Origin: a bacterium | GTDB lineage: Bacteria > SAR324 > JACQKK01 | Length of the DNA: 64,000 bases | Direction: 5' to 3' | NCBI GenBank assembly: GCA_965249525.1 | Contig: OZ252237.1 | Span: forward strand, 1,241,470 to 1,305,469 | Part shown: positions 10,541-51,476 of the stretch, in pieces | Numbering within the stretch: the first letter of the stretch is position 1 | Layout of the letters: each line of letters begins with the position of its first letter | Position numbers and translations under genes: made by a program | The notes under the pieces: generated by a model | Seen by the model: the letters and a program-made list of their open reading frames with translations, nothing else | Told to the model about the DNA's origin: nothing | The model's database searches: none

Positions 10541-12004
10541 ATGAAAACTCTACAATCATCATATACTGTGCCGGGCGTCTTTGTCTTGCTGTTGTCGGCT
10601 GTGCTGCTAAGCCTTGCCAGCTGCGGCGGCGGAGGCGGCGGTGGAGGCGGCGGCGGTGACGACAGCAAGGTTGCCGACAACAGCCCTCCCGACACGCCCC
10701 CTCCCGACGTCACCCCTCCTCCCATCATTGAGCCTGAACCCCTACTAGCCATCTCAGCAGGGTGGGTTCACACTTGTGCCATTGTGGAGGGCAAAGCCTG
10801 GTGCTGGGGAAAGAACGCCAACGGCCAGCTGGGCAACAACAGCACCGATGAGAGCAATCTTCCTGTGGCTGTGGTGCAAACCCCTGCAGTTACCACCGTT
10901 GGCAGCGAAAAAGATGCCGTTCTGCTGGACAGCGGGGTCTCTGCCATCTCAGCAGGGGTTAGCCACACTTGTGCCATTCAGGAGGGTGCCGCCTTCTGCT
11001 GGGGGAGCAACACCAATAGACGGCTGGGCAACTCTTATGGGACCAGCAATGTTGCTGTGCCTATCAGCACGCTGGGCAGCGGGGTCACTGCCATCTCAGC
11101 AGGGGATCGGCACACTTGTGCCATTCATGCTGGCAAAGCCTGGTGCTGGGGGAGCATGCTCAATGGACGGCTGGGTAACAACATCGATGCCACCAGTGTT
11201 AATACGTTTAGCGGTGTTCCTATGGCTGTGATGCTAACCGCTGAAACCACTACCACCATTGGCGGCACCACCACCACCACCGCTGCCACATTCATGGAGG
11301 GTGATGTGGATGCCATCATCTCAGCAGGGAGGGATCACACTTGTGCCGTTCACCTGGAACAAGCCTACTGCTGGGGGAACGGCGACTATGGACGGCTGGG
11401 CAACGACACTACCGACCATAAAAGCCTAGCCACGCTTGTGGGAGCCGCTGGCAGCATGCTGGACAGCGGAGTCACTTCCATCTCAACAGGGAGTGACCAC
11501 ACTTGTGCCATTCACAATACTGCTAGCGGGGATGAAGATGATGCATTTGCCGCCAAGTGCTGGGGGCGCAACAACAGGGGTCAGCTGGGCAGAGAATTTG
11601 CGGTAAGTAGCACTACTGTTCTTTTAAGCCAAAGCGATATTCCCGTGCAGGTCACAGGGCTGGAAAACAATGTCACTGCCATCTCAGCAGCGACTAATCA
11701 CACTTGTGCCGTTCAAGCTGGCAAAGCCTGGTGCTGGGGTGATGAGAAACAGGATCAGCTGGGCGTAACCGACGCTTTATCTCCAAAGCTAAGCTATGTA
11801 CCCCTGGCTGTGGAAATCACCGATGGCGGCCCCCAGCTAAGCGGGGTCACTGACATCTCAGTAGGGCAATTTCACACTTGTGCGCTGCTTGACACTGGTG
11901 TTGTCCAATGCTGGGGGGGTAACGGCAATGGACAGCTGGGGGTTGGCGCGCTTGAAGGTGGTGATGCCACAACCTTCATACCCCAAACCCTGAGCTTTAA
12001 GTAA
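10541..12004 (+). CDS. RCC1-repeat (7-blade) lipoprotein g1
   Basis: MKTLQSSY leader, lipobox LASC + 11 Gly, seven HTCA..CWG..LG repeats, RBS AAGGAGG. Confidence 0.9.
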   Translation: MKTLQSSYTVPGVFVLLLSAVLLSLASCGGGGGGGGGGGDDSKVADNSPPDTPPPDVTPPPIIEPEPLLAISAGWVHTCAIVEGKAWCWGKNANGQLGNNSTDESNLPVAVVQTPAVTTVGSEKDAVLLDSGVSAISAGVSHTCAIQEGAAFCWGSNTNRRLGNSYGTSNVAVPISTLGSGVTAISAGDRHTCAIHAGKAWCWGSMLNGRLGNNIDATSVNTFSGVPMAVMLTAETTTTIGGTTTTTAATFMEGDVDAIISAGRDHTCAVHLEQAYCWGNGDYGRLGNDTTDHKSLATLVGAAGSMLDSGVTSISTGSDHTCAIHNTASGDEDDAFAAKCWGRNNRGQLGREFAVSSTTVLLSQSDIPVQVTGLENNVTAISAATNHTCAVQAGKAWCWGDEKQDQLGVTDALSPKLSYVPLAVEITDGGPQLSGVTDISVGQFHTCALLDTGVVQCWGGNGNGQLGVGALEGGDATTFIPQTLSFK

Positions 12005-12224
12005 CAACCCGCCCAACTAGCATCAAGGCTGCTGTCTGTAACCAGGCAGCAGCCTTTTTTGCAGCGTCCTGACTGCCAAAAAAAATATCCCCATACCCTA
12101 GCATTTGATACAAAGAGGGTGTATTATTATAAACTGGCTTTTGGTGCAAACCCAGGCTATCTTGTAAGAGGCTATCTTGTAAGCTCGTGAGGCATTCTAT
12201 ACTCACATTTCTAAGGAGAAAATT
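12002..12224 (+). repeat. RCC1 cassette leader L1 (extended -10 replaced by tatccccatacc)
   Basis: Same terminator and 15-bp repeats as other copies, but no TATAAT. Confidence 0.9.
12025..12060 (+). terminator. Intrinsic terminator, reiterated after cassette genes
   Basis: aaggctgctgtct-gtaacc-aggcagcagcctt stem with one G.U pair, followed by a T run. Confidence 0.85.
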
Positions 12225-13565
12225 ATGAAAACTCTACAATCATCATATACTGTACCGGGCCTGTTTGTCTTGCTGTTATCGGCTGTACTGCTAAGCCTTG
12301 CCAGCTGCGGCGGGGGTGGCGGCGGTGGCGGTAGCAACGGTGGCGGCAGCCCTGCCATAACAGTTAGTGCTATCTCAGCAGGGGATAGCCACACTTGTGC
12401 CATCCTCAGCACAGGCGCCGCCAAATGCTGGGGAGAGAACTTCAACGGCCAGCTGGGTGACGACAGCACCGATGACAGCAATCTTCCTGCGGCTGTGGTG
12501 CAAACCCCTGCCGATACTTCTGACACTGACTCTGATAAGCATACCTCTGCCGTTCTGCTGGACAGCGGGGTCACTGCCATCTCAGCAGGGTTGGTTCACA
12601 CTTGTGCCATTCATAATGGTGCCGCTAAGTGCTGGGGGTTCAACGGCAATGGACGGCTGGGTGACGGCTTCACCGATGACAGCCCTATTCCCGTGCAGGT
12701 TTCAGGGCTGACTAGCCAGGTCACTGCCATCTCAGCAGGGGGTGCTCACACTTGTGCCATTCACAATACTGCTGGCGAGGGTGAAACTGAGGCACTTGCC
12801 GCCAAATGCTGGGGGCTCAACGGCAATGGACAGCTGGGTGACGGCAGCAGCACTAAGAGGTTAACACCCGTGCAGGTTTCTGGGCTGGGCAACGGAGTCA
12901 TTGACATCTCAGCAGGGGAAGTTCACACTTGTGCCATTCACAGGACTACTGCTGGCAAGCATGCCGCCAAGTGCTGGGGGAGCAACAACAAGGGTCAGCT
13001 GGGCAACGGCGCTACTAGCGGCGAGCAAAATGCACCCGTGCCAGTTGGCGGCGAGCTAGGCGATCTGGTCACTGACATCTCAGCAGGGAATGCTCACACT
13101 TGTGCCATTCAAGATGGCAAAGCCTGGTGCTGGGGTGATAACAGCCTGGGTCAGCTGGGCAGAGTGCTTGGTGTATCTCTAATGGTAAGCGGTACACCCG
13201 AGGCTGTTGTGGACCCTACCAGTGACGGCAGAGACCAGCTAAGCGGGGTCACTGACATCTCAGCAGGGAGTGGTCACACTTGTGCGCTGCTTGCCAGCGG
13301 TGTTGTCCACTGCTGGGGGCTCAACAGCAATGGACAGCTGGGCGTCGACACCACCAGCACTGCAAGCAGCACTATTCCCCTGCAGGTTGAAGGGCTGGAA
13401 AGCCAGGTCACTGCCATCTCAGCAGGGGATGAGCACACTTGTGCACTGCTTGACAGCGGTGTTGTCCAATGCTGGGGGAGTAACGGCGATGGACAGCTGG
13501 GGGTTGGCACACTTTCAGGTGATGCTACCTCAAGCCCCACGCCCCAAGCCCTAAGCTTTGAGTAA
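12225..13565 (+). CDS. RCC1-repeat (7-blade) lipoprotein g2
   Basis: Same leader, LASC + 8 Gly, seven repeats. Confidence 0.9.
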   Translation: MKTLQSSYTVPGLFVLLLSAVLLSLASCGGGGGGGGSNGGGSPAITVSAISAGDSHTCAILSTGAAKCWGENFNGQLGDDSTDDSNLPAAVVQTPADTSDTDSDKHTSAVLLDSGVTAISAGLVHTCAIHNGAAKCWGFNGNGRLGDGFTDDSPIPVQVSGLTSQVTAISAGGAHTCAIHNTAGEGETEALAAKCWGLNGNGQLGDGSSTKRLTPVQVSGLGNGVIDISAGEVHTCAIHRTTAGKHAAKCWGSNNKGQLGNGATSGEQNAPVPVGGELGDLVTDISAGNAHTCAIQDGKAWCWGDNSLGQLGRVLGVSLMVSGTPEAVVDPTSDGRDQLSGVTDISAGSGHTCALLASGVVHCWGLNSNGQLGVDTTSTASSTIPLQVEGLESQVTAISAGDEHTCALLDSGVVQCWGSNGDGQLGVGTLSGDATSSPTPQALSFE

Positions 13566-13789: not shown

Positions 13790-15127
13790 ATGAAAACTCT
13801 ACAATCATCATATACTGTGCCGGGCCTGTTTGTCTTGCTGTTATCGGTTGTGCTGCTAAGCCTTGCCAGCTGCGGTGGAGGTGGCGGCGGCGGTGGAGGC
13901 GGCACCCCTGCCATCGCTAAGCCTAAACCCCCAATAGATGCCATAGCCATCTCAGCAGGGGAAGAACACGCTTGTGCCGTTCTCAGCACAGGCGCCGCCA
14001 AGTGCTGGGGGCTCAACGGCAGTGGACGGCTGGGTGACGGCAGCAAAGCTGACAGGGATATTCCCGTGGCTGTCAGCACGCTGGGCAGCGGGGTCTCTGC
14101 CATCTCAGCAGGGAGTGAGCACACTTGTGCCATTCATAAGGGCGTCGCCAAGTGCTGGGGTTTTAACATATATGGTCAGCTGGGTGACGACAGCATCTCT
14201 GACAGCAATAGTCCCAAGAATGTCGCAGATCTAGGCAGCGGGGTCACTGCCATCTCAGCAGGGAATAGCCACACTTGTGCCATCCTCAGCACAGGTGCCG
14301 CCATGTGCTGGGGAAGTAACCAAAATGCCCAGCTGGGTAAAGGCACCGATATTCCATCCAGCACCACGCCTGTGGAGGTCACGAATCTGGGCAGCGGGGT
14401 CGAAAAAATCTCAGCAGGGGGGTCTCACACTTGTGCCATTCACAATACGGCTACGGCTAGCGTGAGTGACCCTACCCCTGACCCTGTACTTGCCGCCAAG
14501 TGCTGGGGAGATGACACAGAGGGTCAGCTGGGCGACGGCGACACCACCACTGGAGGCCCTACACCCGTGCAGGTTTCTGGGCTGGGCAGCGGAGTCATTG
14601 ACATCTCAGCAGGGCAAAATCACACTTGTGCCATTCACAATACTGCTGCCGAGGGTGAAACTGAGCAACTTGCCGCCAAGTGCTGGGGGAACGACGGCAA
14701 TGGACGGCTGGGCAACGGCAGTGGTGACTCCAATGCAAATGCACCCGTGGCAGTTAGCGGCGAGCTAAACAGCGGAGTCACTGACATCTCAGCAGGGTAT
14801 ACTCACACTTGTGCCGTTCAAGATGGTAAAGTCTGGTGCTGGGGTGATAACAGCCAGGGTCAGCTGGGCAGAGAGATTGCTGTAACATTTCTAACAGCGA
14901 ACCACCGTATACCCGTGGCTGTGGCAGCCAACGATTACATGGGAGACCCGCTAGACGACCAGCTAAGCGGGGTCACCGCCATCTCAGCAGGGCAATTTCA
15001 CACTTGTGCGCTGCTTGACAGCGGTGTTGTCCAATGCTGGGGGAGTAACGTCCAGGGACAGCTGGGGGTTGGCAAAGATCCTATTGATGACTCTACCGCC
15101 ACGCCCCAAACCGTGCGTGAACCCTAA
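13790..15127 (+). CDS. RCC1-repeat (7-blade) lipoprotein g3
   Basis: LASC + 10 Gly, seven repeats, ends TPQTVREP. Confidence 0.9.
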   Translation: MKTLQSSYTVPGLFVLLLSVVLLSLASCGGGGGGGGGGTPAIAKPKPPIDAIAISAGEEHACAVLSTGAAKCWGLNGSGRLGDGSKADRDIPVAVSTLGSGVSAISAGSEHTCAIHKGVAKCWGFNIYGQLGDDSISDSNSPKNVADLGSGVTAISAGNSHTCAILSTGAAMCWGSNQNAQLGKGTDIPSSTTPVEVTNLGSGVEKISAGGSHTCAIHNTATASVSDPTPDPVLAAKCWGDDTEGQLGDGDTTTGGPTPVQVSGLGSGVIDISAGQNHTCAIHNTAAEGETEQLAAKCWGNDGNGRLGNGSGDSNANAPVAVSGELNSGVTDISAGYTHTCAVQDGKVWCWGDNSQGQLGREIAVTFLTANHRIPVAVAANDYMGDPLDDQLSGVTAISAGQFHTCALLDSGVVQCWGSNVQGQLGVGKDPIDDSTATPQTVREP

Positions 15128-15135
15128 GCTTTAAG

Positions 15136-15362: not shown

Positions 15363-16670
15363 ATGAAAACTCTACAATCATCATATACTGTACCGGGCGT
15401 CTTTGTCTTGCTGTTATCGGCTGTGCTGCTAAGCCTTGCCAGCTGCGGCGGCGGTGGCGGTAGCAACGGTGGCGGCAGCCCTGCCATAACAGTTAGTGCT
15501 ATCTCAGCAGGGAGTGAGCACACTTGTGCCATCCTCAGCACAGGCGCCGCCAAATGCTGGGGAGAGAACTTCAACGGCCAGCTGGGTGACGACAGCACCG
15601 ATGACAGCAATCTTCCTGCGGCTGTGGTGCAAACCCCTGCCGATACTTCTGACTCTGATAAGCATACCTCTGCCGTTCTGCTGGACAGCGGGGTCACTGC
15701 CATCTCAGCAGGGGGGGGTCACACTTGTGCCATTCATAATGGCGCCGCCAAGTGCTGGGGAAACAACGGACAGGGACGGCTGGGCGACGGCAGCGATACT
15801 GAAAGCAATATTCCCGTGGCTGTCGCAGATCTGGGCAGCGGGGTCACTGCCATCTCAGCAGGGGGTCAGCACACTTGTGCCGTTCACAATGGCGCCGCCC
15901 AGTGCTGGGGTTTAAACCGACTTGGTCAGCTGGGTGACGGCACCGGCATGGAAAGGCTCACACCCACGCAGGTTTCTGAGCTGGGCAGCGGAGTCATTGA
16001 CATCTCAGCAGGGCAAAATCACACTTGTGCCATTCACAATACTGGTACCGAAGATGACCCTGTACTTGCCGCCAAGTGCTGGGGGAGCAATTTCAGTGGC
16101 AAGCTGGGCGACGGCAGCGATACTGAAAGCAATATTCCCGTGGCTGTCGCAGATCTGGACAGCGATGTCACTGCCATCTCAGCAGGGGCTAACCACACTT
16201 GTGCCGTTCATAATGGCGCCGCCAAGTGCTGGGGGAGCGACAGCAAGGGGAAGCTGGGCAACGGCAGTAGTAAAACCCGCAATCAAACCGAACCCATGCT
16301 TGTGGGAGAAACTGGCAGCGAGCTAAGCAGCGGAGTCTCTGCCATCTCAGCAGGGAATCTTCACACTTGTGCCGTTCAAAATACTAAAGCCTGGTGCTGG
16401 GGTGATAACAGCATGGGTCAGCTGGGTGTAAACATTGCTATAACTGCAGCGGAAAGCCATAGACCCGTGGCTGTGGAAACCACCCTTGACGGCAAAATGA
16501 AGCTAAGCGGGGTCACTGCCATCTCAGCAGGGTTGGAGCACACTTGTGCGCTGCTTGCCACTGGCGTTGTCCAATGCTGGGGGAGTAACGTCCAGGGACA
16601 GCTGGGGGTTGGTGCACTTCCAGATGGTGATGCCACAACCCTCACGCCCCAAACCCTGAGCTTTAAGTAA
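15363..16670 (+). CDS. RCC1-repeat (7-blade) lipoprotein g4
   Basis: LASC + 5 Gly, seven repeats. Confidence 0.9.
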   Translation: MKTLQSSYTVPGVFVLLLSAVLLSLASCGGGGGSNGGGSPAITVSAISAGSEHTCAILSTGAAKCWGENFNGQLGDDSTDDSNLPAAVVQTPADTSDSDKHTSAVLLDSGVTAISAGGGHTCAIHNGAAKCWGNNGQGRLGDGSDTESNIPVAVADLGSGVTAISAGGQHTCAVHNGAAQCWGLNRLGQLGDGTGMERLTPTQVSELGSGVIDISAGQNHTCAIHNTGTEDDPVLAAKCWGSNFSGKLGDGSDTESNIPVAVADLDSDVTAISAGANHTCAVHNGAAKCWGSDSKGKLGNGSSKTRNQTEPMLVGETGSELSSGVSAISAGNLHTCAVQNTKAWCWGDNSMGQLGVNIAITAAESHRPVAVETTLDGKMKLSGVTAISAGLEHTCALLATGVVQCWGSNVQGQLGVGALPDGDATTLTPQTLSFK

Positions 16671-18159: not shown

Positions 18160-19401
18160 ATGACGGAATTGGTAATCAAAGTTCACACCCGATTGCTAAA
18201 ATTGTTGGAGTTGCTGGAGGGTGAGGGGGCGCAAACTGTATTAAAGCCCAAAAACTGGCGGCGCTGGATATTTTATGGGTCCCTATCCGCTTTGTTGCTG
18301 CATCCAGAGACTCGCAGGTTGTTGTTGGAAGTGCTGCGCAACACCTATTTGACGGTGGTGGTGTTTGTGGCAGCCACCTTGGCGATATTTTATTTTCTGG
18401 AGGATTGGTTTCGGGTGGATGTGGCGGCGTTGTTGCAGCGTCATCGTCGCATTCAGCCGATGATTGCTGCCTTAGTGGGGGCTTTGCCTGGATGCGGGGG
18501 GGCGATTATGGTGGTGACACAGTATGTGAAGGGGGGCATCAGTTTTGGGGCATTGATTGCGGTGTTGACTGCAACCATGGGAGATGCGGCGTTCTTGCTT
18601 TTGGCACGCAAGCCCTTGGTGGCATTGGGATTATTTGCTGTCGGTGCTTTGGTGGGGACTGTTACAGGGATGGTGGTGGATGCCATTCATGGACCTGATT
18701 TTCTGCGCAGCAAGAATGTGCCGCAGCACATCAGTACACAGCGGGATTTGTTGGCGCCGCAGCCCTTATTTGGTTTTGCTTGGTTGTTGGCATTGCTTCC
18801 TGGGTTGGTGTTGGGCTTGGCGGATGCGTTTCAGTTAAATCTTGACGGCTTGCTGGGATTTAGTGAAGGATTTTGGCTGCCTTCTATGGTGGTAGGAGTG
18901 GCAGGAGGCACTTTAAGCATGCTGATGTGGGATTTGCTGCCTTATCGCCAGCCTCCTGTGAAGCCCAAGGGTTGTCGGGTGGAACGAAAAGACATGTTCC
19001 GCTGGCAGTATGGTTCTACCATTAGCCGCATTGTGAATGACACCAACTTTGTTACCAAGTGGGTGGTGATGGCATTTTTGTTTTATGAGTTGTTGTTATT
19101 CTTTAGCGGGGTGGAGTTGGGGAATGTGTTTCGTTTGTGGGCGCCGTTGGTGCCGCTGGTTGCAGTGCTGATGGGCTTTATCCCTGGTTGTGGACCACAG
19201 GTGTTGGTAACAGCCCTGTATGTGGATGGCTTCATTCCGTTTTCTGCCCAGCTGGGCAATGCAATTAGCAATGATGGAGATGCCCTCTTCCCTGCTATTG
19301 CCATAGCCCCCAAGGCTTCTATTGTGGCCACCTTGTATAGTGCTATTCCTGCGGTGCTGATGTCATACGGTTGGTATTGGCTGTTTGAAAGGGGGGGATA
19401 G
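18160..19401 (+). CDS. Putative manganese/metal transporter (DUF2899-type permease)
   Basis: Two internal repeats with GALPGCGGAI and GFIPGCGPQV, TATMGDAAF, NAISNDGDALFP. Confidence 0.8.
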   Translation: MTELVIKVHTRLLKLLELLEGEGAQTVLKPKNWRRWIFYGSLSALLLHPETRRLLLEVLRNTYLTVVVFVAATLAIFYFLEDWFRVDVAALLQRHRRIQPMIAALVGALPGCGGAIMVVTQYVKGGISFGALIAVLTATMGDAAFLLLARKPLVALGLFAVGALVGTVTGMVVDAIHGPDFLRSKNVPQHISTQRDLLAPQPLFGFAWLLALLPGLVLGLADAFQLNLDGLLGFSEGFWLPSMVVGVAGGTLSMLMWDLLPYRQPPVKPKGCRVERKDMFRWQYGSTISRIVNDTNFVTKWVVMAFLFYELLLFFSGVELGNVFRLWAPLVPLVAVLMGFIPGCGPQVLVTALYVDGFIPFSAQLGNAISNDGDALFPAIAIAPKASIVATLYSAIPAVLMSYGWYWLFERGG

Positions 19402-19516
19402 CCACACTTGTGCCCTTCACAATGGCGCCGCCAAGTGCTGGGGGCGCAACTTAGGCAGGCGGGGCGACGGCAGCACCCATACCAGCAACAACCCCAAAAC
19501 CGTGTTGTTTGAATAA
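19394..19516 (+). pseudogene. Orphan last blade of a CARDB-RCC1-type gene
   Basis: Reads GDSHTCALHNGAAKCWGRNLGRRGDGSTHTSNNPKTVLFE*; the 3' end aaccgtgttgtttgaataagccgtggc matches the end of the 24464 gene. Confidence 0.85.
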
Positions 19517-19758: not shown

Positions 19759-21165
19759 ATGAAAACTCTACAATCATCATATACTGTGCCGAGCGTGTTT
19801 GTCTTGCTGTTATCGGCTGTGCTGCTAAGCCTTGCCAGCTGCGGCGGGGGTGGAGGCGGCGGCGGTGGCAGCAGCAACGGCGGCAGCAGCGCTGCCATAA
19901 AAGTTAGTGCTATCTCAGCAGGGAATAGCCACACTTGTGCCATCCTCAGCACAGGCGCCGCCCAGTGCTGGGGAAATAACGCCACCGGCCAGCTGGGCAA
20001 CAACAGCACCGCTGAGAGCAATCTTCCTGTGGCTGTGGTGCAAACCCCTGCCGATACTTCTGACTCTGATAAGCATACCTCTGCCGTTCTGCTGGACAGC
20101 GGGGTCGATAAAATCTCAGCAGGGAGTGAGCACACTTGTGCCGTCCTCAGCACAGGCGCCGCCCAGTGCTGGGGGAGTAACGTGAATGGACGGCTGGGCA
20201 ACAGTGATACCGATGACAGCAGTACTCCCATGGATGTCACAGGGCTGAACAGCGAGGTCACTGCCATCTCAGCAGGGGGGCAGCACACTTGTGCCATTCA
20301 TGGTGGCGCCGCCTTCTGCTGGGGGAACATGAGCGATGGACGGCTGGGTAACAACATGAATCCCGCGGCTAGTGCTACGATTAAGCATAGCGATGTTCCT
20401 GTGGCTGTGCTGCTAACCGCTGAAACCACTACCACCAGTGGCGGCACCTCCACCACCACCGCTGCCACATTCATGGAGGGCGATGTGGATGCCATCATCT
20501 CAGCAGGGACTTTTCACACTTGCGCCGTTCACCTGGAAACAGCCTACTGCTGGGGGGCCGATGGCCATGGACGGCTGGGCAACGGCGCTGATATTACCGA
20601 CAATCAAGGCCTACCCACGCTTGTGGATGTGAGCGCGCTGGAGAGCGGAGTCATGATTAACATCTCAGCAGGGCTTCAGCACACTTGTGCCATTCACAGG
20701 ACTACTGCTGGCGGTGTTAATAAGGATGCCGCCTACTGCTGGGGGAGCAACAGCCATGGTCAGCTGGGCAACGGTGCTACTAGCGGCGAGCAAAATGCAC
20801 CCGTGCCAGTTGGCGGCGAGCTAGGCGATCTGGTCACTGACATCTCAGCAGGGGGGGTTCACACTTGTGCCATTCAAGATGGCAAAGCCTGGTGCTGGGG
20901 TAATAACAACCTGGGTCAGCTGGGCAGAGTGCTTGGTGTATCTCCAATGGTAAGCGGTACACCCGAGGCTGTGGCAACCACCGATGGCGGCAAACAGCTA
21001 AGCGGGGTCAATAAAATCTCAGCAGGGAACACTCACACTTGTGCGCTGCTTAACACTGGTGTTGTCCAATGCTGGGGGAGTAACGGACAGGGACGGCTGG
21101 GGGTTGGCGCGCTTGAAGGTGGTGATGCCACAACCTTCACGCCCCAAACCCTGAGCTTTAAGTAA
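19759..21165 (+). CDS. RCC1-repeat (7-blade) lipoprotein g5
   Basis: LASC + 9 Gly, seven repeats. Confidence 0.9.
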   Translation: MKTLQSSYTVPSVFVLLLSAVLLSLASCGGGGGGGGGSSNGGSSAAIKVSAISAGNSHTCAILSTGAAQCWGNNATGQLGNNSTAESNLPVAVVQTPADTSDSDKHTSAVLLDSGVDKISAGSEHTCAVLSTGAAQCWGSNVNGRLGNSDTDDSSTPMDVTGLNSEVTAISAGGQHTCAIHGGAAFCWGNMSDGRLGNNMNPAASATIKHSDVPVAVLLTAETTTTSGGTSTTTAATFMEGDVDAIISAGTFHTCAVHLETAYCWGADGHGRLGNGADITDNQGLPTLVDVSALESGVMINISAGLQHTCAIHRTTAGGVNKDAAYCWGSNSHGQLGNGATSGEQNAPVPVGGELGDLVTDISAGGVHTCAIQDGKAWCWGNNNLGQLGRVLGVSPMVSGTPEAVATTDGGKQLSGVNKISAGNTHTCALLNTGVVQCWGSNGQGRLGVGALEGGDATTFTPQTLSFK

Positions 21166-21389: not shown

Positions 21390-22751
21390 ATGAAAACTCT
21401 ACAATCATCATATACTGTGCCGGGCCTGTTTGTCTTGCTGTTATCGGCTGTGCTGCTAAGCCTTGCCAGCTGCGGCGGCGGAGGCGGCGGCGGTGGCAGC
21501 AGCAACGGCGGCGGCAGCGCTGCCATAAAAGTTAGTGCTATCTCAGCAGGGAATAGCCACACTTGTGCCATCCTCAGCACAGGCGCCGCCCAGTGCTGGG
21601 GAAATAACGCCACCGGCCAGCTGGGCAACAACAGCACCGCTGAGAGCAATCTTCCTGTGGCTGTGGTGCAAACCCCTGCCGATACTTCTGACTCTGATAA
21701 GCATACCTCTGCCGTTCTGCTGGACAGCGGGGTCACTGCCATCTCAGCAAGGGGTCTTCATACTTGTGCCATTCATAATGGTGCCGCCAAGTGCTGGGGG
21801 TTCAACGGCAATGGACGGCTGGGTACCGCCTCCAGCACTGACACCAAGATTCCCCATCAGGTTTTAGGAGAGCTGGACAGCGATGCCACTACCAGTGCCA
21901 TCTCAGCAGGGGGGCAGCACACTTGTGCCATTCATGGTGGCGCCGCCTTCTGCTGGGGGAACATGCTCAGTGGACGGCTGGGTAACAACATGGTTGCCGA
22001 TGCGTTTAGCGATTTTCCTGTGGCTGTGCTGCTAAAAGCTGCAGTTACCACCGACCCCACCGAACCTGCCAAATTCATGGACGGCGATGTGGATGCCATC
22101 ATCTCAGCAGGGGAGTCTTACACTTGTGCCGTTCACCTGGAAAAAGCCTACTGCTGGGGGTACAACGGCAGTGGACAGCTGGGCAACGACACTACCGACA
22201 ATAAAAGCCTAGCCACGCTTGTGAGCGTGGACAGCGGAGTCATGATTAACATCTCAGCAGGGCTTCAGCACACTTGTGCCATTCACAGGACTACTGCTGG
22301 CGGTGTTAATAAGGATGCCGCCTACTGCTGGGGGAGCAACAGCCATGGTCAGCTGGGCAACGGTGTTACTAGAGGCAATCAAAGTGCACCCGTGGAAGTT
22401 GGCGGCGAGCTAGGCGATCTGGTCACTGACATCTCAGCAGGGGCTTCTCACACTTGTGCCGTTCAAGATGGCAAAGCCTGGTGCTGGGGTAATAACAGCC
22501 AGGGTCAGCTGGGCAGAGTGCTTGGTGTATCTCCAATGGTAAGCGCTACACCCGTGGCTGTGGACCCCAGCGGTGACGGCAGAGGCCAGCTAAGCGGGGT
22601 CAATAAAATCTCAGCAGGGCAATTTCACACTTGTGCGCTGCTTAACACTGGCGTTGTCCAATGCTGGGGGGGTAACGGCAATGGACAGCTGGGGGTTGGC
22701 AGCAAGCCTGCTGGCTCAACCTCCACGCCCCAAACCGTGCGTGAACCCTAA
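21390..22751 (+). CDS. RCC1-repeat (7-blade) lipoprotein g6
   Basis: LASC + 8 Gly, seven repeats, ends TPQTVREP. Confidence 0.9.
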   Translation: MKTLQSSYTVPGLFVLLLSAVLLSLASCGGGGGGGGSSNGGGSAAIKVSAISAGNSHTCAILSTGAAQCWGNNATGQLGNNSTAESNLPVAVVQTPADTSDSDKHTSAVLLDSGVTAISARGLHTCAIHNGAAKCWGFNGNGRLGTASSTDTKIPHQVLGELDSDATTSAISAGGQHTCAIHGGAAFCWGNMLSGRLGNNMVADAFSDFPVAVLLKAAVTTDPTEPAKFMDGDVDAIISAGESYTCAVHLEKAYCWGYNGSGQLGNDTTDNKSLATLVSVDSGVMINISAGLQHTCAIHRTTAGGVNKDAAYCWGSNSHGQLGNGVTRGNQSAPVEVGGELGDLVTDISAGASHTCAVQDGKAWCWGNNSQGQLGRVLGVSPMVSATPVAVDPSGDGRGQLSGVNKISAGQFHTCALLNTGVVQCWGGNGNGQLGVGSKPAGSTSTPQTVREP

Positions 22752-26806: not shown

Positions 26807-26864
26807 GGATGAAGAATGATGACTGCTATCAATAGCAAAAACAGCAAATTCAAGATAGTCATAT

Positions 26865-26893
26865 ATCATAGAATTTTTAAAACCGCCTGTCAA
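26865..26893 (-). promoter_or_regulatory. Sigma70-type promoter TTGACA-N17-TATGAT
   Basis: Minus strand TTGACA 26893-26888, 17-bp spacer, TATGAT 26870-26865. Confidence 0.7.
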
Positions 26894-27042
26894 CTCTAAA
26901 AAAAGAGATTTTTTTATACAGGCAAAAAGCAATTGTTCAAAGGATGGTTTTGCATGTGAAAGTCAAACATGCAAGGATAGAAGTGGTTCTTAGTAGAAAT
27001 CAAAAGTTTTATTAAAACTGCTATTGCTTATGAGGAGGTGCT

Positions 27043-36678: not shown

Positions 36679-37080
36679 ATTGTAAGAAATTGTGTAGAAA
36701 AATGAAGAAAAAGTGCATTCGCTTAGCAGCCGAGACAACGGTTGTTATCATGAAAATAGGAGTGGTAGTGCACGTTCTTGAACAGGAAAGACTTGTATCA
36801 GTAATTTATTATGCCTCCATTCAAACTGATGCAAGTCTTTCCTCTTCTTTCTCATAAAAAAGAAAAATACGCTAACCCAATTGTAAGAAATCGTGTAGAA
36901 AAATGAAGAAAAAGTGCATTCGCTTAGCAGCTGAGACAGCGGTTGTTATCATGAAAATAGGAGTGGTAGTGCACGTTCTTGAACAGGAAAGACTTGTATC
37001 AGTAATTTATTATGCCTCCATCCAAACTGATGCAAGTCCTTCCTCTTCTTTCTCATAAAAAAGAAAAATATGCTAACCCA
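36679..37080. repeat. 201-bp tandem duplication (36679-36879 / 36880-37080)
   Basis: Near-identical copies from attgtaagaaa to gctaaccca. Confidence 0.95.
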
Positions 37081-37137
37081 GGTGATGTTTCTGGCAACTT
37101 GCTAAAGATGTATATCGCCATAAAAAAGGAGAACCCT

Positions 37138-37830
37138 ATGAAAACCTACATTTTACCCACATACCCTTATTTAGTTGATATGGTCAGCAAAACCAAGCAA
37201 CCGGGGCTTTACAATGCTTTATTGCTGGTAGTCATGCTGCTGCCTTCCCTTACGCTGTTCTCCTGCGGAGGCGGCGGCAGCGGCAGCGGCGGCAGCGGCG
37301 GCAGCGGCAGCGAAACAGCAGCAGCAGCACCAGCCCCTCTCTCAGACAACATTTATCTGTGGACAACAACCTCACAGTACAATGGCAATTTGGGCGGAAT
37401 AGAGGGTGCAAATAACAAATGCGCTGGCGATGACGCCAAGATAGCTGCTTTGCCAACGGGTGAATTTACTTATACCCATCAGGCAGTACTGGCTGGAAGT
37501 GAATCTCATTCCAGCAGCATTATACCCAGTACGGACACCCGTGAAGTCCAGCGTCCCGACAGCACCAAGATTGCTGACAACTACCAAGCTTTTGCAGGCA
37601 GCACTAATGCTGTGGATGCCAGCGTGACCAGCAATAACATTGAATACTGGACAGGCTTAGATTATTCTGTTGGGGATGCTACCTTTGCCCTAAGCAACCA
37701 CTGCAACAATTGGGGTGTGTCATCAGGTACTGGTGCTGTTGGACGTTCTATAGATATTGATGGAGATAGATTAGGCAATTACATACCTGCCTGTAATACC
37801 CCGCAATATCTTTTGTGCCTTAGTCATTAA
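37138..37830 (+). CDS. DUF1554 (endostatin/C-type-lectin-like) lipoprotein P1
   Basis: Lipobox LFSC + Gly; YNGNLGGIEGANNKC...WTGL...CNNW...C...LLC pattern; GGAG RBS before ATG 37138. Confidence 0.75.
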   Translation: MKTYILPTYPYLVDMVSKTKQPGLYNALLLVVMLLPSLTLFSCGGGGSGSGGSGGSGSETAAAAPAPLSDNIYLWTTTSQYNGNLGGIEGANNKCAGDDAKIAALPTGEFTYTHQAVLAGSESHSSSIIPSTDTREVQRPDSTKIADNYQAFAGSTNAVDASVTSNNIEYWTGLDYSVGDATFALSNHCNNWGVSSGTGAVGRSIDIDGDRLGNYIPACNTPQYLLCLSH

Positions 37831-37897
37831 TTTGCACCCCCAGCAAAAAAAGGGTAACATATTAGGTAGTTCTTTCTCCCATTCTAGGAGTACCTGC

Positions 37898-38587
37898 ATG
37901 CAAACCCACCTCTGGTCTCAGTCTATCTCAGTAAAATCAAGCAGGGGGCATCAAGCACTCCTGCTGTTGGCAGCCCTGCTGCTGCCCTCCCTCATACTGT
38001 TCTCCTGTGGAGGCAGTGGAGGAGGCGGCGGCGGAGACAAAACAGCAGCAGCCCCTCCCCCAGACCCCATTTATCTGTGGACAACAACAACCTCAGATCA
38101 CACGGGCAATTTGGGCGGAATAGTTGAAGCAAATAAGGTATGCGCTAACGATACCGCCAAGATAGCTGCTTTGCCAGATTTGCCAACGGGTGTTACTTAT
38201 ACCCATCAGGCAGTACTGGCTGATGCTGGATCTCATCCCAGCAGCATTATACCCAGTTCGGACACCAATCAAGTCCAGCGTCCTGACGGCACCAAAATTG
38301 CTGAAAACTACCAAGCTTTTGCAGGCAGCACTGCTAATGTGGATGCTGGCGTGACAAGCAATAGCATTGAATACTGGACTGGCTTACAGCCTGACTCTGA
38401 CTCTGGCACATTTACTACTCCTCCTGGTTCTCACTGCAGCAATTGGAGCAACGAAGAAACATCAGGGAGCGGTTTTATTGGACTTTCTCAAGAGGCCGGC
38501 TCGGGTAGATTAGGCCGCCGTGGAGTTTCTTTCTGCAATAGCACGCACCATCTTTTGTGCATCAGTCACACTCCTCCTACTGAGTGA
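37898..38587 (+). CDS. DUF1554-like lipoprotein P2
   Basis: AGGAG RBS, MQTHLWSQ leader, LFSC, same Cys/Trp pattern. Confidence 0.75.
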   Translation: MQTHLWSQSISVKSSRGHQALLLLAALLLPSLILFSCGGSGGGGGGDKTAAAPPPDPIYLWTTTTSDHTGNLGGIVEANKVCANDTAKIAALPDLPTGVTYTHQAVLADAGSHPSSIIPSSDTNQVQRPDGTKIAENYQAFAGSTANVDAGVTSNSIEYWTGLQPDSDSGTFTTPPGSHCSNWSNEETSGSGFIGLSQEAGSGRLGRRGVSFCNSTHHLLCISHTPPTE

Positions 38588-45955: not shown

Positions 45956-45985
45956 TAGCGCAATTCCCTTAAAAGAAAGCCGATT

Positions 45986-46834: not shown

Positions 46835-46852
46835 GGGGAAGGTTGGTGAGAG

Positions 46853-48349
46853 TTAAAATAGACGCAGCCGTCCCCAAGAGGGACTGTTTTCTTCTATGTC
46901 TTTGGCGGTGTTGGTGAGACGGCGCAGTCCGCTGCCATCAATGGCTACCACATAGAGTTTGAATTCACCACTGCGCCGTGAAGCAAACACAATCTGGCGG
47001 CCGTCTGGCGACCATTCTGCTTGCTCGCAGTTGTATGCGCCTTTTGTCACCGCTCGTAGATTCTGACCAAAGTCATCCATGATGTAAATCTGATCCACCC
47101 CTTTTTCCCGCCTGGTAAAGAGAATGTTTTGCCCATCGGGACTCCATTTGGGATCTGTGTTGTAGATGCTGTCAAAGCTCAGGCGCAGTTCACGACGAGT
47201 CTTTAAGTTCAATACATACACCTGCGGGCCGCCAGAGCGATCGGAAATATACACCAACTGGCTGCCATCGGGACTCCAATCTGGCTGGATCTCAATGCCC
47301 TCCCGTTGGGTAACACGATGGGGTTTGGAGATTTTTTTCTTGTACAGGTTCAAAAAGAACAGATCGATGTTTTCATCCATACTCATGGTAAATGCCAGCC
47401 GTTTGCCATTGCGTGAGAATGAACCACCTGTGTTTAAGCTGCCGAAATCGGTAAGGTAGCCGCTGCGCCTGCCTGTTCCAGCCAACTTCTGGTAGTAAAT
47501 GCGACTGCCTTTGAGAGAAAGCACGGTATAGATGATGGCATGGGTATCCGGTGTCAGGCGCGGCAAGATAGAAATGTTCTTGTTGCGAGAAATAATTTGA
47601 GGTCTGGTGCCGTGGGTATCGGTGGCGGCAATCACGGTTTTCCGTCCTGTCTGCTTCATGGCAAAGACAATGGTGGAGCCCAGCATTCCCCGTGTGCCCG
47701 TTAGACGCTTCGCCAACTGGTTGACCAATTCCATCACCGTCAATTCACGCAAACCTTGTTTTAAGTGAAAACCACGCTCAAACAACAGCAGCCCCTCAGG
47801 ACCAGCATCAAACACCTGCACGCGTACCAGTTTGCCATCTGTACTCAACTTCATGTACATATCCACCCGCAAACTTTGCTTGACCGGGCAGTAGCGTCTG
47901 CTGCTTTTGGCTATGCTGCTTTTGGCTATGCTGCTTTTGGCTATGCTGCTTTTGGCTATGCTGCTTTTGGCTATGCTGCTTTTAGCTAAATTGAACAGTC
48001 CGCTCCAACACAGGTTGCGTTTCAATAAGTCTTGAAATTTAACAAAATCCTGCTGCGCCCTGGCTGCCAGGACTTTTTTGCTTGGCAGCACTTCCAGCTG
48101 CAGTGACAGCCTGGCGAATCCCAGACCTTCTATCAAAATATCCTCTGCGGGATCCTGCTTGCCTGAAGGAGGCGCATAAGGCAGTGGCTGCGGCGGGCGC
48201 ACTACCTTGCTTAACCTGGCAGACTGTGCCCAGCCTGCACCCCCGCCCACCACACACAGCAACAACCACAACAAAACACTGCGCCCCACACAGCCTGACC
48301 GCAAACCGCAGCCCTGCCAAGAAAAAGCTCTCACTTGTTGCATCAACAT
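46853..48349 (-). CDS. tolB: Tol-Pal system propeller TolB, with AKSSI repeat insertion
   Basis: PD40 repeats PDWSPDG, PKWSPDG, EWSPDG; location in the tol cluster. Confidence 0.88.
   Translation of the reverse strand: MLMQQVRAFSWQGCGLRSGCVGRSVLLWLLLCVVGGGAGWAQSARLSKVVRPPQPLPYAPPSGKQDPAEDILIEGLGFARLSLQLEVLPSKKVLAARAQQDFVKFQDLLKRNLCWSGLFNLAKSSIAKSSIAKSSIAKSSIAKSSIAKSSRRYCPVKQSLRVDMYMKLSTDGKLVRVQVFDAGPEGLLLFERGFHLKQGLRELTVMELVNQLAKRLTGTRGMLGSTIVFAMKQTGRKTVIAATDTHGTRPQIISRNKNISILPRLTPDTHAIIYTVLSLKGSRIYYQKLAGTGRRSGYLTDFGSLNTGGSFSRNGKRLAFTMSMDENIDLFFLNLYKKKISKPHRVTQREGIEIQPDWSPDGSQLVYISDRSGGPQVYVLNLKTRRELRLSFDSIYNTDPKWSPDGQNILFTRREKGVDQIYIMDDFGQNLRAVTKGAYNCEQAEWSPDGRQIVFASRRSGEFKLYVVAIDGSGLRRLTNTAKDIEENSPSWGRLRLF
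47899..47988. repeat. 15-bp tandem repeat x6 inside tolB
   Basis: tgctgcttttggcta units. Confidence 0.95.
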
Positions 48350-48562
48350 TAGCTTACAAGACAGCCTCTTACAAGATAGCCTGGGTTTGCACCAAAAACC
48401 AGTTTCTAATAAATACAGCCTGGCTAATTCAGCTTGGCTAATTTACCTGGCTTGGTGCTAAATGCTATTATAGCATAATTTTTTTTGGCAGTCAGGACAC
48501 TGCAAAAAAGGCTGCTGCCTGGTTACAGACAGCAGCCTTGATGCTAGTTGGGCGGGTTGTTA
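48350..48562 (-). repeat. Cassette leader L8, directly upstream of the tolB start
   Basis: Terminator, CTGACT-N17-TATAAT, 15-bp repeats, then ATGTTGATGCAA. Confidence 0.9.
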
Positions 48563-49861
48563 CTCAAAGCTCAGGGTTTGGGGCACGGAGGTTGAGGTAT
48601 CAGGCTCGCTGTCAGCATCATCACCATCTGCAAGCTCGCCAACCCCCAGCCGTCCATTGTTGTTGGCACCCCAGCATTTGGCAACGCCGCTGTGAAGCGC
48701 ACAAGTGTGCAAATTCCCTGCTGAGATGGCAGTGACATCGTTTTCCAGCCCGTCAACCTGCACGGGAATATTGCTGGTGGTGGTGCTGGTGGCGACGCCC
48801 AGCTGACCATTGCTGTTACTCCCCCAGCACTTGGCGGCGCCCTTGTGAACCACACAAGTGTGAAATTGCCCTGCTGAGATTTTGGCATCGGCATCGACTT
48901 CCAGCAAGGCTTCATCGATAGAGTTGTCAGGGTCGGCAACGGTTTGCACCACAGCCACAGGAACCAGACTTTGAGTGATTTTGCCGTTACCCAGCCGTCC
49001 ACTGCCGTTGTTCCCCCAGCACCAGGCTTTGCCCTCCACAATGGCACAAGTGTGAGAAATCCCTGCTGAGATGATGGCATTGACATCGCTAGTCAGCACG
49101 TCAACCTGCACAGGCGTCTTGCGGTTATTATTATCTACAATACTGAAACCAACGTCAAAAGTGGTAACGGTGCCGTCACCCAGCTTGCCATTGCCATTGC
49201 TCCCCCAGCACTTGGCGACGCCATTATGAATGGCACAAGTGTGGCTACTCCCTGCTGAGATGGCAGTGACATCGCTAGTCAGCCCTGTGACCTGCACGGG
49301 AGTAGTGTTGCTACTCACTTCTTTGCCCAGCTGACCAAATTGATTACTCCCCCAGCACTTGGCGGCGCCACCATGAATGGCACAAGTGTGAGCACCCCCT
49401 GCTGAGATGGCAGTGACCCCACTGCCCAGCGTGCTGACAGCCATGGGAGTACTGCTGTCATCGGTATTACCTCTGCCCAGCTGTCCATCGCCGCCGTACC
49501 CCCAGCACTGGGCGGCGCCTGTGCTGAGGACGGCACAAGTGTGACCCGCCGCTGAGATGGCAGTGACCCCACTGCCCAGCGTGCTGACAGCCACAGGAAG
49601 ATTGCTGTCAGTGCCGCTCTCTTTGTTGCCCAGCTGGCCGCTGGCGTTATGTCCCCAGCACCAGGCTTTGCCCTCCACCATGGCACAAGTGTGACTTTGC
49701 CCTGCTGTAATAGCACTAGCCGTTAACGGTATGGCAGCACTGCCGCCGCCGCTGCCGCCGCCACCACCGCCCCCGCCGCAGCTGGCAAGGCTTAGCAGTA
49801 CAGCCGACAACAGCAAGACAAACAGGCTTGGCGCAGCATATAATGATTTTAGATTTTTCAT
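48560..49861 (-). CDS. RCC1-repeat (7-blade) lipoprotein g7
   Basis: MKNLKSLY leader, LASC + Gly, seven repeats. Confidence 0.9.
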   Translation of the reverse strand: MKNLKSLYAAPSLFVLLLSAVLLSLASCGGGGGGGGSGGGSAAIPLTASAITAGQSHTCAMVEGKAWCWGHNASGQLGNKESGTDSNLPVAVSTLGSGVTAISAAGHTCAVLSTGAAQCWGYGGDGQLGRGNTDDSSTPMAVSTLGSGVTAISAGGAHTCAIHGGAAKCWGSNQFGQLGKEVSSNTTPVQVTGLTSDVTAISAGSSHTCAIHNGVAKCWGSNGNGKLGDGTVTTFDVGFSIVDNNNRKTPVQVDVLTSDVNAIISAGISHTCAIVEGKAWCWGNNGSGRLGNGKITQSLVPVAVVQTVADPDNSIDEALLEVDADAKISAGQFHTCVVHKGAAKCWGSNSNGQLGVATSTTTSNIPVQVDGLENDVTAISAGNLHTCALHSGVAKCWGANNNGRLGVGELADGDDADSEPDTSTSVPQTLSFE

Positions 49862-50105
49862 GATCTCCTCCTTAGAAGTGTGAATATAGAATGCCTCACG
49901 AGCTTACAAGATAGCCTCTTACAAGATAGCTTCTTGCAAGATAGCCTGGATTTGCACCAAAAGCCAGTTTCTAATAAATTCACTTGCTTTGGTGTAAGTG
50001 TTATTATAGCATAATATTTTTTCTTTGGCAGTCAGGACGCTGCAAGAAAAAAGGCTGCTGCCTGGTTACAGACAGCAGCCTTTATGCTAGTTGGGCGGGT
50101 TGTTA
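49862..50105 (-). repeat. Cassette leader L9 (three 15-bp units)
   Basis: Reverse complement of the consensus element. Confidence 0.9.
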
Positions 50106-51476
50106 CTCCTCAAAGCTCACGGTTTGGGGCGTGGAGGTTGAGGTATCAGCATCGCTGTCAGCATCATCACCATCTGGAAGCTCGCCAACCCCCAGCCGTC
50201 CATTGGTGTTTTCACCCCAGCATTTGAAAACGCCGCTGTGAATGGCACAAGTGTAATTAATCCCTGCTGAGATGGCAGTGACATCGCTGTCCAGCAGAAC
50301 GGCATCAGTAGGGTTGCCATCAGAGTCGGTACCGGCAGGGGTTTGCACCACAGTCACAGGCTCATTGCTGACAAATCCAGGAGTGCTGCTTTTGGCGACG
50401 CCCAGCTGGCCGAAGGAGTTACTTCCCCAGCACTTGGCGGCACCACCATGAATGGCACAAGTGTGAAACTCCCCTGCTGAGATGGCAGTGACACCGCTAG
50501 TCAGGTCTGTGACCTGCACAGGCGTGGTTTTGTCCTTATCAATTCCCACGACACCAACAGTGGTAGTCTCGCTGTTACCCAGCTTGCCATTTTCGTTGTT
50601 CCCCCAGCACTTGGCGGCGCCATCGTGAACGGCACAAGTGTGCTCCACCCCTGCTGAGATGGCATCGACCTTGCTAGTCAGGTCTGTGACCTGCACGGGT
50701 GTAAAGCCGCTGCTGTCGTCGTCGCCGTCGCCCAGCTGACCCTCTGTGTCATCTCCCCAGCACTTGGCGGCGCCCTTGTGAACGGCACAAGTGTGATTAG
50801 CCCCTGCTGAGATGGCAGTGACATCGCTGTTTAGCTTGTCGGCAGTGGTTCCCACAAGCACGGGTACAGTTTGATCGGCGGTAGCAGCGGTGCCCAGCCG
50901 TCCATCGGTAAATTGCCCCCAGCAATAGGCGGCCTTATTTACAATCGCACAAGTGTGCCTATCCGCTGCTGAGATGGCAGTGACAAGGTTGTTCAGCGGA
51001 GAGCTGAGAGCCCCAGGAATCTTCCTGTCAGGGCTGGCGGTGAAACCCAGCCGTCCATTGCTGCCGAACCCCCAGCACCAGGCGGCGTCATCTACAATCG
51101 CACAAGTGTGCCTCTCCCCTGCTGAGATGGCAGTGACCCCGCTGTCCAGATTTGTGACCTTCTTGGGAGTACTGCTGTCAACGGCACCACCGATGCCCAG
51201 CCGTCCACTGCCGTTGTTCCCCCAGCACTGGGCGGCAAGTACCTCAGCTTCACCCTCGGCAGCAGTATTGTGAATGGCACAAGTGTGCTTCTCCCCTGCT
51301 GAGATAGTAGTACCACTTATTATGGGAGTGTCGTCGCCGCCGTTGCCGGGGTCAGCGACGACGCCGCCGTTGCCACCACCGCCGCCACCGCCGCAGCCGG
51401 CAAGGCTTAGCAGGGCAACCGAAAACAGCAGAACAAACATGTTCGGTGTAGTATATAATGATTTTAGATTTTTCAT
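50103..51476 (-). CDS. RCC1-repeat (7-blade) lipoprotein g8
   Basis: LAGC + Gly, seven repeats. Confidence 0.9.
   Translation of the reverse strand: MKNLKSLYTTPNMFVLLFSVALLSLAGCGGGGGGGNGGVVADPGNGGDDTPIISGTTISAGEKHTCAIHNTAAEGEAEVLAAQCWGNNGSGRLGIGGAVDSSTPKKVTNLDSGVTAISAGERHTCAIVDDAAWCWGFGSNGRLGFTASPDRKIPGALSSPLNNLVTAISAADRHTCAIVNKAAYCWGQFTDGRLGTAATADQTVPVLVGTTADKLNSDVTAISAGANHTCAVHKGAAKCWGDDTEGQLGDGDDDSSGFTPVQVTDLTSKVDAISAGVEHTCAVHDGAAKCWGNNENGKLGNSETTTVGVVGIDKDKTTPVQVTDLTSGVTAISAGEFHTCAIHGGAAKCWGSNSFGQLGVAKSSTPGFVSNEPVTVVQTPAGTDSDGNPTDAVLLDSDVTAISAGINYTCAIHSGVFKCWGENTNGRLGVGELPDGDDADSDADTSTSTPQTVSFEE

Follow-up and report, generated by a model that had tools for sequence, protein, structure and literature searches.

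Classification and features

The 64,000-nucleotide stretch of DNA analyzed here (the window; positions 1,241,470 to 1,305,469 of contig OZ252237.1, assembly GCA_965249525.1, from a bacterium of the SAR324 lineage) carries 11 of the approximately 22 paralogous genes of a family of RCC1-type propeller lipoproteins, in which almost invariant stretches of DNA (anchors) bracket hypervariable codons in most blades of the propeller. The central element of a blade is the pattern CCATCTCAGCAGGG-N6-CACACTTGTGCC, in which N6 stands for two hypervariable codons between the left and the right anchor; a second hotspot, WG-x-N-x-x, has its variable codons after the invariant block TGCTGGGG. The RCC1 genes in the window are as follows (aa, amino acids).

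1-164, reverse strand: 5' end of another long-type RCC1 gene, extending past the window (genome positions 1239216-1241633)
185-2629, reverse strand: long-type lipoprotein gene, CARDB followed by a seven-bladed RCC1 propeller (Pfam: CARDB, RCC1, WD40_RLD; 7 CWG and 7 ISAGxxHTCA motifs)
10541-12004, forward strand: short-type RCC1 lipoprotein gene, 487 aa, 7 blades, opening the tandem array (Pfam; lipobox LASC, poly-Gly linker)
12225-13565, forward strand: short-type RCC1 lipoprotein gene, 446 aa, mosaic, the protein modeled (AlphaFold2, Foldseek)
13790-15127, forward strand: short-type RCC1 lipoprotein gene, 445 aa, 7 blades (translation, motif counts)
15363-16670, forward strand: short-type RCC1 lipoprotein gene, 435 aa, 7 blades (blade comparison with the 12225 gene)
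19759-21165, forward strand: short-type RCC1 lipoprotein gene, 468 aa, 7 blades (translation, motif counts)
21390-22751, forward strand: short-type RCC1 lipoprotein gene, 453 aa, 7 blades, a near-twin collinear with the 19759 gene
24464-26932, reverse strand: long-type CARDB and RCC1 lipoprotein gene, 822 aa (Pfam)
29406-31447, forward strand: CARDB and RCC1 gene in two open reading frames (29406-30653 and 30545-31447), 2 + 5 blades
48560-49861, reverse strand: short-type RCC1 lipoprotein gene, blades 1-12% diverged from a paralog about 750 kb away
50103-51476, reverse strand: short-type RCC1 lipoprotein gene, 457 aa, 7 blades (Pfam)

In the whole genome, a single contig of 1.72 Mb, 23 RCC1 open reading frames (ORFs) were found, which represent 22 genes (one split by a frameshift) and together make up 2.1% of the sequence. 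The CWG motif that marks a blade occurred seven times in 20 of the 23 ORFs, six times in one, and two plus five times in the split gene; the window holds 76 CWG-marked blades, the genome about 150 propeller blades. Genome-wide, the anchor pair yielded 117 matches in two regions about 700 kb apart, and all 117 lie inside RCC1 ORFs. Outside the window, at approximately 967-971 kb of the genome, lie further RCC1-like ORFs of greater divergence, with open frames of 553-934 aa; as these were missed by the CWG/HTCA filter, the family exceeds 22 genes.

Protein architecture and fold

In a Pfam profile scan of eight ORFs, all eight matched RCC1 (PF00415) with 42-222 bits (cut-off 21.7) and seven matched WD40_RLD (PF25390) with 165-229 bits (cut-off 150), the exception being the two-blade part of the frameshifted gene; three of the window genes also showed N-terminal CARDB domains. 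All short-type genes encode a lipobox (...LLSLASC GGGG... at residues 22-28), judged by eye on the translations with the criterion [LVI][ASTVI][GAS]C, followed by a poly-Gly linker. By prediction, the propellers are probably exposed on the cell envelope.

Each short-type gene is preceded by a conserved element of about 130 bases ending in AAGGAGGAGATT-ATG (e.g., 10370-10540 and 12054-12224), inside which the number of tandem copies of the 15-base unit AGGCTATCTTGTAAG varies between genes from one to three. Most of the 11 short-type paralogs have invariant DNA, silent sites included, over the final 42 bases of the region coding for the signal peptide (...CTGCTAAGCCTTGCCAGCTGC); the region comprises the first 84 bases of the gene (e.g., 12225-12308), and the poly-Gly linker behind it varies in length.

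The AlphaFold2 model of the product of the 12225 gene (predicted local distance difference test (pLDDT) 79.5, predicted template modeling score (pTM) 0.81) has four strands per repeat. Its best match in Foldseek was UVR8 (template modeling (TM) score 0.85-0.87), with HERC2, RCC1 and BLIP-II also matched, and UVR8 was the best PDB match by sequence as well (E = 1e-38). In each blade of the model VTAISA forms strand 1, HTCAIH strand 2 and AAKCWG strand 3; G-x-x is a three-residue turn between strands 1 and 2, and x-N-x-x-GQLG begins the long loop from strand 3 to strand 4. An exact anchor pair illustrates the arrangement.

12577-12608, forward strand: CCATCTCAGCAGGG / TTGGTT (Leu-Val) / CACACTTGTGCC, encoding strand 1, the G-x-x turn and strand 2

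Since successive loops of a beta-meander alternate between faces, the two hotspots, which occupy the first and third loops, are predicted to share one face of the propeller, an assignment made by topology and homology. In the alignment to UVR8, G-x-x-H-T falls over GWRHT and WG-x-N-x over W92-G-W94-G-D96; in UVR8, the residues W94, D96, W233/285/337 and R286/338 are located on the dimer-interaction surface (PMC4501546, PMC9546227). The original prediction had proposed a diversifying ligand-binding face, with structure prediction as a check on whether the variable sites lie together; the turn and loop topology of the model agrees with a common face, as does the alignment to the UVR8 interface. 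Ligand binding by this face is putative.

Codon fixation at the anchors

Anchors were found in most blades, as originally described: the pattern CCATCTCAGCAGGG-N6-CACACTTGTGCC had 68 matches in the window at up to three mismatches (22 of them exact) for 76 CWG blades, and 100 shuffles gave none. The anchors are the longest invariant runs of the blade, 12-14 nt each, and their synonymous sites are nearly fixed. Compared with 769 long non-RCC1 ORFs, which served as reference for genomic codon usage, the anchor codons were TCA in 96% vs 12% (Ser), GCA in 87% vs 29% (Ala), GGG in 86% vs 20% (Gly), CAC in 89% vs 41% (His), ACT in 93% vs 20% (Thr) and TGT in 91% vs 45% (Cys). In the 15 core genes, blades belonging to one gene share the third bases of the anchors at an identity of 0.91-1.00. 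Fixation extends beyond the anchors around N6, with CAG-CTG of GQLG, TGC of CWG, one GCC and two AGC equally fixed, and four invariant DNA blocks per blade can be delimited, namely TGCTGGGG, (C)AGCTGGG, ATCTCAGCAGGG and CACACTTGTGC.

The same residue has different fixed codons at different positions: Cys is TGC at CWG and TGT at HTCA, Ser is TCA at ISAG and AGC at two other columns, and Ala is GCA at ISAG and GCC three residues before CWG. Codon choice is therefore tied to position and not to residue, which argues for shared DNA ancestry or homogenization and not for preferred codons. Genome-wide codon bias was accordingly ruled out as the cause of the anchors by comparing genomic codon usage with the anchor columns, and a gene-level codon preference or translational accuracy by the position-dependent codons of one residue. 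The RCC1 blades of a genome of the same genus also encode ISAGxxHTCA and CWGxNxxGQLG, with scrambled synonymous codons. The anchor pattern was absent from 30 relatives, including that same-genus genome, and had no match in two public collections, one of genome contigs and one of metagenome contigs. No sister strain was present in the collections searched, and the closest non-self protein match was 51% identical; the RCC1 loci are not shared with the same-genus genome, whose housekeeping proteins are 64-77% identical.

In the codon alignment of blades (150 complete blades, 50 columns), the third-base identity between blades of one gene was 0.89-1.00 at Ser34, Ala35, Gly36, Thr40, Cys41, Leu9, Cys0 and Ala48, and 0.35-0.59 at Gly2, Gly7, Gly10, Pro20, Val23, Ala42 and Gly46. 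Slow and fast silent sites differed accordingly in near-twin blades (2/148 vs 17/172 differences, p = 0.001) and in a wider set (20/636 vs 186/779, p = 7e-32). In nine gene pairs, the slow fourfold sites of the anchors differed by 1.7%, other fourfold sites by 22.6%, the 130 bases upstream by 14.6% and the 100 bases downstream by 26%, so that the anchors are about tenfold more conserved than the non-coding flanks. The anchors are thus held at the DNA level, as had been suggested, and the deficit of silent change, 7-13-fold relative to other fourfold or flanking non-coding sites, is real. Most of the free silent sites precede a variable base. A few old blade haplotypes behind the free sites were ruled out, linkage among those sites being weak.

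Variable codons

The N6 position of 146 blades took 119 different hexamers and 94 different dipeptides, which agrees with the dozens of dipeptides noted at the outset. No other columns of the blade vary as much as these two (3.70 and 3.63 bits), and the three x columns of WG-x-N-x-x after TGCTGGGG reach 3.46, 3.38 and 3.50 bits. Over 150 bases, the first blades of the 12225 and 15363 genes differ only by TTGGTT vs GGGGGT and by two silent changes. In the gene at 185-2629, near-twin blades do differ at CWGW/CWGQ and at N6 (with a length difference of one codon), although not 'mainly' there, as had been stated, since about eight other codons differ as well.

The form NNC-AAC-NNC-NNT given for the second hotspot in the original prediction held in part. 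The conserved Asn uses AAC in 83%, the third base of codon 5 is C in 78/102 (34 expected) and that of codon 6 is T in 68/102, but codon 3 ends in C in only 51/102. A similar preference was seen in column 37, with T as third base in 61/102 vs 28 expected. In every variable column, 10-16 residues share one third base beyond genomic codon usage (p <= 5e-4, tree-free test), and this retention accounts for the appearance of the pattern. A third base retained under so many residues means that the diversity of the residues is younger than the silent sites beneath them and does not consist of ancient balanced alleles; such alleles at N6 were ruled out, since codon use there departs widely from the genomic equilibrium (NNT is retained, and none of the 17 Gly at codon 37 is GGC).

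Where the GGG of the left anchor is joined to N6 Gly codons, G runs of 6-8 bases result (15700-15731, 20840-20871 and 14406-14437); such runs reach eight bases genome-wide and are slippage-prone.

Substitution rates

Since the blades are far apart (median 41% nucleotide difference over 150 aligned bases), rates were taken from the 25 closest blade pairs, defined as spanning-tree edges of at most 12%. These near-twin pairs showed 195 nonsynonymous and 38 synonymous codon differences. The ratio of nonsynonymous to synonymous substitution rates (dN/dS) was calculated by the Nei-Gojobori method with bootstrap over pairs, and a second time with the fastest fourfold sites only as yardstick. The N6 codons yielded a dN/dS of 11.6, or 8.5 on the fastest fourfold sites (lower limit of the confidence interval (CI) 4.6), and WGxNxx one of 4.1, or 3.0 on those sites (lower limit 1.95). 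Outside the hotspots the values were 1.3-1.9 in the rest of the long loop, 1.3-1.8 in the loop to the next blade, 0.8-1.1 in the opposite-face turn and the variable strand-3 columns, and 0.09-0.13 in the structural core. The dN/dS check suggested with the original prediction thus came out well above 1 at both hotspots.

Recombination between paralogs

The paralogs are mosaics. The nearest relative of a blade is often found in another gene, at another blade position or in the same gene, and three-sequence comparisons revealed patchy parentage. The blades of the gene at 12225-13565 are nearest to blades of four other paralogs; in the gene at 185-2629, the nearest relatives of blades 1-5 are one another (nearest-neighbor table). 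The closest partner of an upstream region differs from that of the gene body behind it. The 48560 gene shows only 1/130 differences upstream and 0/84 in the signal peptide relative to one distant paralog (comparison with genome positions 540579-543461), whereas its blades are closest to a different paralog, so that mosaicism reaches the promoters.

Among 22 three-sequence mosaics, the breakpoint interval touched the N6 anchors in two to four cases, was placed around the CWG block in six and within the variable loops in about ten; anchors as preferred breakpoints were thus not seen. Exact matches tend to end at the hot codons only because these are the codons that differ. A Chi-like hotspot (GCWGGG) was considered and rejected, since outside the family its strand skew is weak (466 vs 333 and 1052 vs 691) and approximately that of the GC skew; GCTGGGG and GCAGGG occur three times per blade, in three frames.

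Evolutionary interpretation

Taken together, the observations are probably best explained by RCC1 lipoprotein blades that evolve in concert while their binding face diversifies. The blades would share recent DNA ancestry and would keep exchanging pieces within and between loci, and by this ancestry and exchange the core codons (...ISAG, HTCA, CWG, QLG) would still carry one ancestral codon each. Residues of the hot turn (N6) and of the loop start (WG-x-N-x-x) are replaced 3-12 times faster than silent sites change, which would place a ring of about 35 hot residues on one propeller face under diversifying selection. New values would arise by point substitution in place, inter-paralog recombination would then reassort the blades, and the outcome would be a repertoire of propellers with different specificities. 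We infer that selection, rather than targeted mutagenesis, is the cause of the hot codons.

Several points weigh against this interpretation. Both N6 codons changed together in 15 of the 25 pairs (Fisher p = 0.012), and 40 of the 68 changed hot codons differ at two or three bases, which would also fit multi-base events. The dN/dS values come from counting methods applied to blades that are paralogous and recombine. Conversion with a third blade as donor can imitate substitutions, yet it cannot make singleton hexamers. The neutral yardstick is uncertain, as taking the slow anchor sites as neutral would put N6 at about 50-70 times the neutral rate, which is high for selection alone. Finally, Gly36, which abuts the hottest codon, is 96% GGG, whereas Gly2, its counterpart ahead of the second hotspot, is free (47%), a contrast predicted by neither linked selection nor simple conversion.

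The anchor deficit itself is tentatively attributed to conversion by more than 100 identical copies. Conversion over an anchor would erase a new variant, while at polymorphic sites it would spread differences; such a process would not account for Gly36. It is rather unlikely that the anchors are functional DNA elements instead of passive relics. As such they may direct diversification without a reverse transcriptase, e.g., templated or error-prone patch synthesis between fixed sites, or they may be kept by second-order selection as scaffolds for the reassortment of blades; either, if true, would be a new bacterial way to build a receptor repertoire.

The strongest of the competing explanations, although we consider it unlikely, was anticipated by the original prediction in its proposal that the anchors are maintained as conversion or crossover sites. 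Here the anchors would act as homology arms, N6 values would be copied between blades by micro-conversion or crossover, and the anchors would be kept for recombination. The true mosaicism of the paralogs, the rank of the anchors as longest invariant runs (12-14 nt), the joint change of both N6 codons and the 7-13-fold higher conservation of anchor silent sites over other silent or flanking non-coding sites would all follow. Copying, however, should leave donors, and 100 of the 119 hexamers occur once, so that most have no donor in the genome; the shared ones mostly mark homologous blades, e.g., QF in the last-but-one unit. As most N6 hexamers are unique, copying from other blades is not their main source, and new values arise in place. 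No silent cassette, anchor-bearing template or anchor copy was found outside the RCC1 ORFs genome-wide, nor were donor cassettes, truncated or lacking a promoter, that would feed a single expressed gene; every gene copy has a start codon, a signal peptide and the conserved upstream element, and there is one orphan blade fragment only. RecA usually needs homology longer than 12-14 nt. With only 2-4 of 22 breakpoint intervals at the anchors, their proposed role as preferred sites of exchange was not upheld.

An explanation limited to the anchors, by which their silent sites are directly selected at the RNA or DNA level, e.g., for an mRNA helix or a translation pause before the hairpin turn, is improbable. 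The tenfold silent deficit relative to flanking non-coding DNA is what it would predict, and complementarity over 8 bp, with two G-U pairs, exists between UCUCAGCA in the left anchor and UGCUGGGG in the CWG block that follows; the fixed TCA, GCA and TGC maximize the pairing, and the commonest minor variants, GCG and TGT, keep a wobble. The mRNA helix was nevertheless rejected, as the mean pairing probability is 0.35 and the folding energy resembles that of shuffles (z = -0.4). Moreover, the partners, being invariant, leave no room for covariation, the sister genome manages without the pairing, and the right anchor has no partner.

Slimmer still is the chance of a dedicated mutator, similar to a diversity-generating retroelement (DGR) or of another kind, that reads the anchors and randomizes N6 and the codons after TGCTGGGG. 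It would suit the razor-sharp edges of conservation on both sides of N6, the NNC/NNT form of the variable codons (which resembles DGR targets), the multi-base differences between near-twin blades and an N6 rate about 70 times that of adjacent silent sites, as calculated from difference counts. A DGR was ruled out because no reverse transcriptase is encoded (RVT_1 had no match anywhere in the 1.72-Mb contig, while control genomes matched), no template-like anchor copy occurs outside the genes and an adenine-specific pattern is lacking: the AAC codon for Asn in the middle of the second hotspot is untouched, and the purine-ending CAA, GAG and CAG are common in N6. For any mutator, a set of about 150 targets would be without precedent; transitions and transversions are mixed at the hot codons in an unremarkable way, and dN/dS declines gradually over the other loops instead of being confined to marked cassettes.

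Least probable is relaxed constraint, i.e., a recent amplification whose unconstrained loops drift apart without positive selection, as the lower dN/dS limits of 4.6 (N6) and 1.95 (WGxNxx) hold even on the fastest silent sites, the third base is kept under up to 16 residues and codon differences stand at 195:38, even though the opposite-face turn and the variable strand-3 columns lie at 0.8-1.1, the other loops at 1.3-1.9 with CIs touching 1, and RCC1 families generally vary at the xx of GxxH.

Concerted evolution of the blades under diversifying selection on one face would have several implications. A turnover of the binding face beyond the silent rate would suggest that this uncultivated lineage faces a strong and persistent conflict or matching problem at its surface, whether with host, prey, phage or particle. 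The family would be a natural library of scaffold-plus-variable-loop binders, each with seven two-residue turns and seven three-residue loops, and the sharp contrast of frozen and free silent sites within 150 bases is well suited to testing how repeats are shaped by gene conversion, selection and mutation.

Genomic neighborhood

Housekeeping genes (ftsW, murF, dapD-like, hisD, tolB and ABC transporter genes) adjoin the RCC1 genes, and no recombinase or mobile element was seen among 20 neighboring genes scanned. The two RCC1 genes at 48560-49861 and 50103-51476 (reverse strand) are flanked by a TonB_2/TolA-like gene (51675-52325) and tolB (46853-48349), after which comes a tetratricopeptide repeat (TPR) gene (CpoB-like); the pair is an insertion into a tol-pal-type cluster (46853-52325, reverse strand). 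An orphan blade fragment (...GDSHTCALHNGAAKCWGRNLGRRGDGS...) at 19373-19504 (forward strand), just upstream of the 19759 gene and overlapping the end of an ArsP-type transporter gene, is what is left of a paralog that was lost or truncated. The frameshift of the gene at 29406-31447 consists of one base missing in the run TGCTGGGGG (30573-30581), exactly at the second hotspot, where five G are present and six are needed for an open frame; it may reflect homopolymer slippage, possibly as an on/off switch, or a sequencing error. Two DUF1554 lipoprotein-like genes stand side by side at 37012-38587 (forward strand); with no reverse transcriptase in the genome, any variability in them would likewise need an origin other than a DGR.

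Comparison with known systems

In the literature, no description of such a pattern was found for a multigene family of RCC1 lipoproteins. Like diversity-generating retroelements, the family combines NNC/NNT variable codons with constant DNA of a binding protein; unlike them, it has no reverse transcriptase, template repeat or adenine pattern, and about 150 variable sites instead of one variable region. In the pilE/pilS minicassettes and in vlsE, conserved segments likewise bracket hypervariable ones in a multi-copy surface-protein family; there, in contrast to the RCC1 genes, a single expression site is supplied by silent donors, whereas most variable values here have no donor. Transcription activator-like (TAL) effector repeats consist of near-identical repeat DNA with two adjacent hypervariable codons (the repeat-variable diresidue) that set specificity. 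Their resemblance to the RCC1 blades is formal only and implies no homology, TAL repeats being alpha-helical DNA-binding repeats of plant-pathogen effectors.

With UVR8, the plant UV-B photoreceptor (PDB 4D9S/4DNW), the proteins share the seven-bladed RCC1 fold and hotspots that align with the dimer- and partner-binding face; UVR8 is eukaryotic, has conserved Trp and Arg at these positions and is about 26% identical, and no functional link is implied. Hu et al. (2017) described diverse hotspot sites on conserved, highly repetitive prokaryotic WD40 repeats (PMC5587647), and according to Pereira and Lupas (2022) RCC1/BLIP-II accounts for 10% of recently amplified propellers (PMC9218822). In these highly repetitive propellers, too, blades share ancestry at the DNA level and the predicted interaction hotspots are the diverse positions; they are, however, single genes with 70-100% identical blades, as opposed to a mosaic family of 22 genes with lower identity and a dN/dS far above 1.

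A further parallel is provided by the HNWD genes of Podospora anserina (the WD40 repeats of het-d, het-e and het-r), which undergo concerted evolution within and between about ten loci (Paoletti et al., 2007, PMC1805685; Chevanne et al., 2010, PMC2873952). A few codons per HNWD repeat are positively selected, paired around a conserved residue and located on one interaction face (PMC1805685); 55 residue combinations were counted in 69 repeats, and repeat-induced point mutation (RIP) has been proposed as the mutator (PMC1805685, PMC2873952). As in HNWD, the RCC1 family shows an in-genome identity of repeat DNA that is absent from the repeats of relatives, exchange within and between loci, and a few codons with dN/dS above 1 on one face, with 94 dipeptides in 146 blades. 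HNWD proteins are fungal, cytoplasmic and NLR-type, with a variable number of WD40 repeats, whereas the present ones are bacterial lipoproteins of RCC1 fold with a nearly constant seven blades, whose DNA identity is about 59% overall and concentrated in invariant islands instead of being spread over uniformly similar repeats. The pattern of a frozen repeat with hypervariable hotspots, known from fungal and cyanobacterial WD40 proteins, thus extends to RCC1 propellers and to a lipoprotein multigene family.

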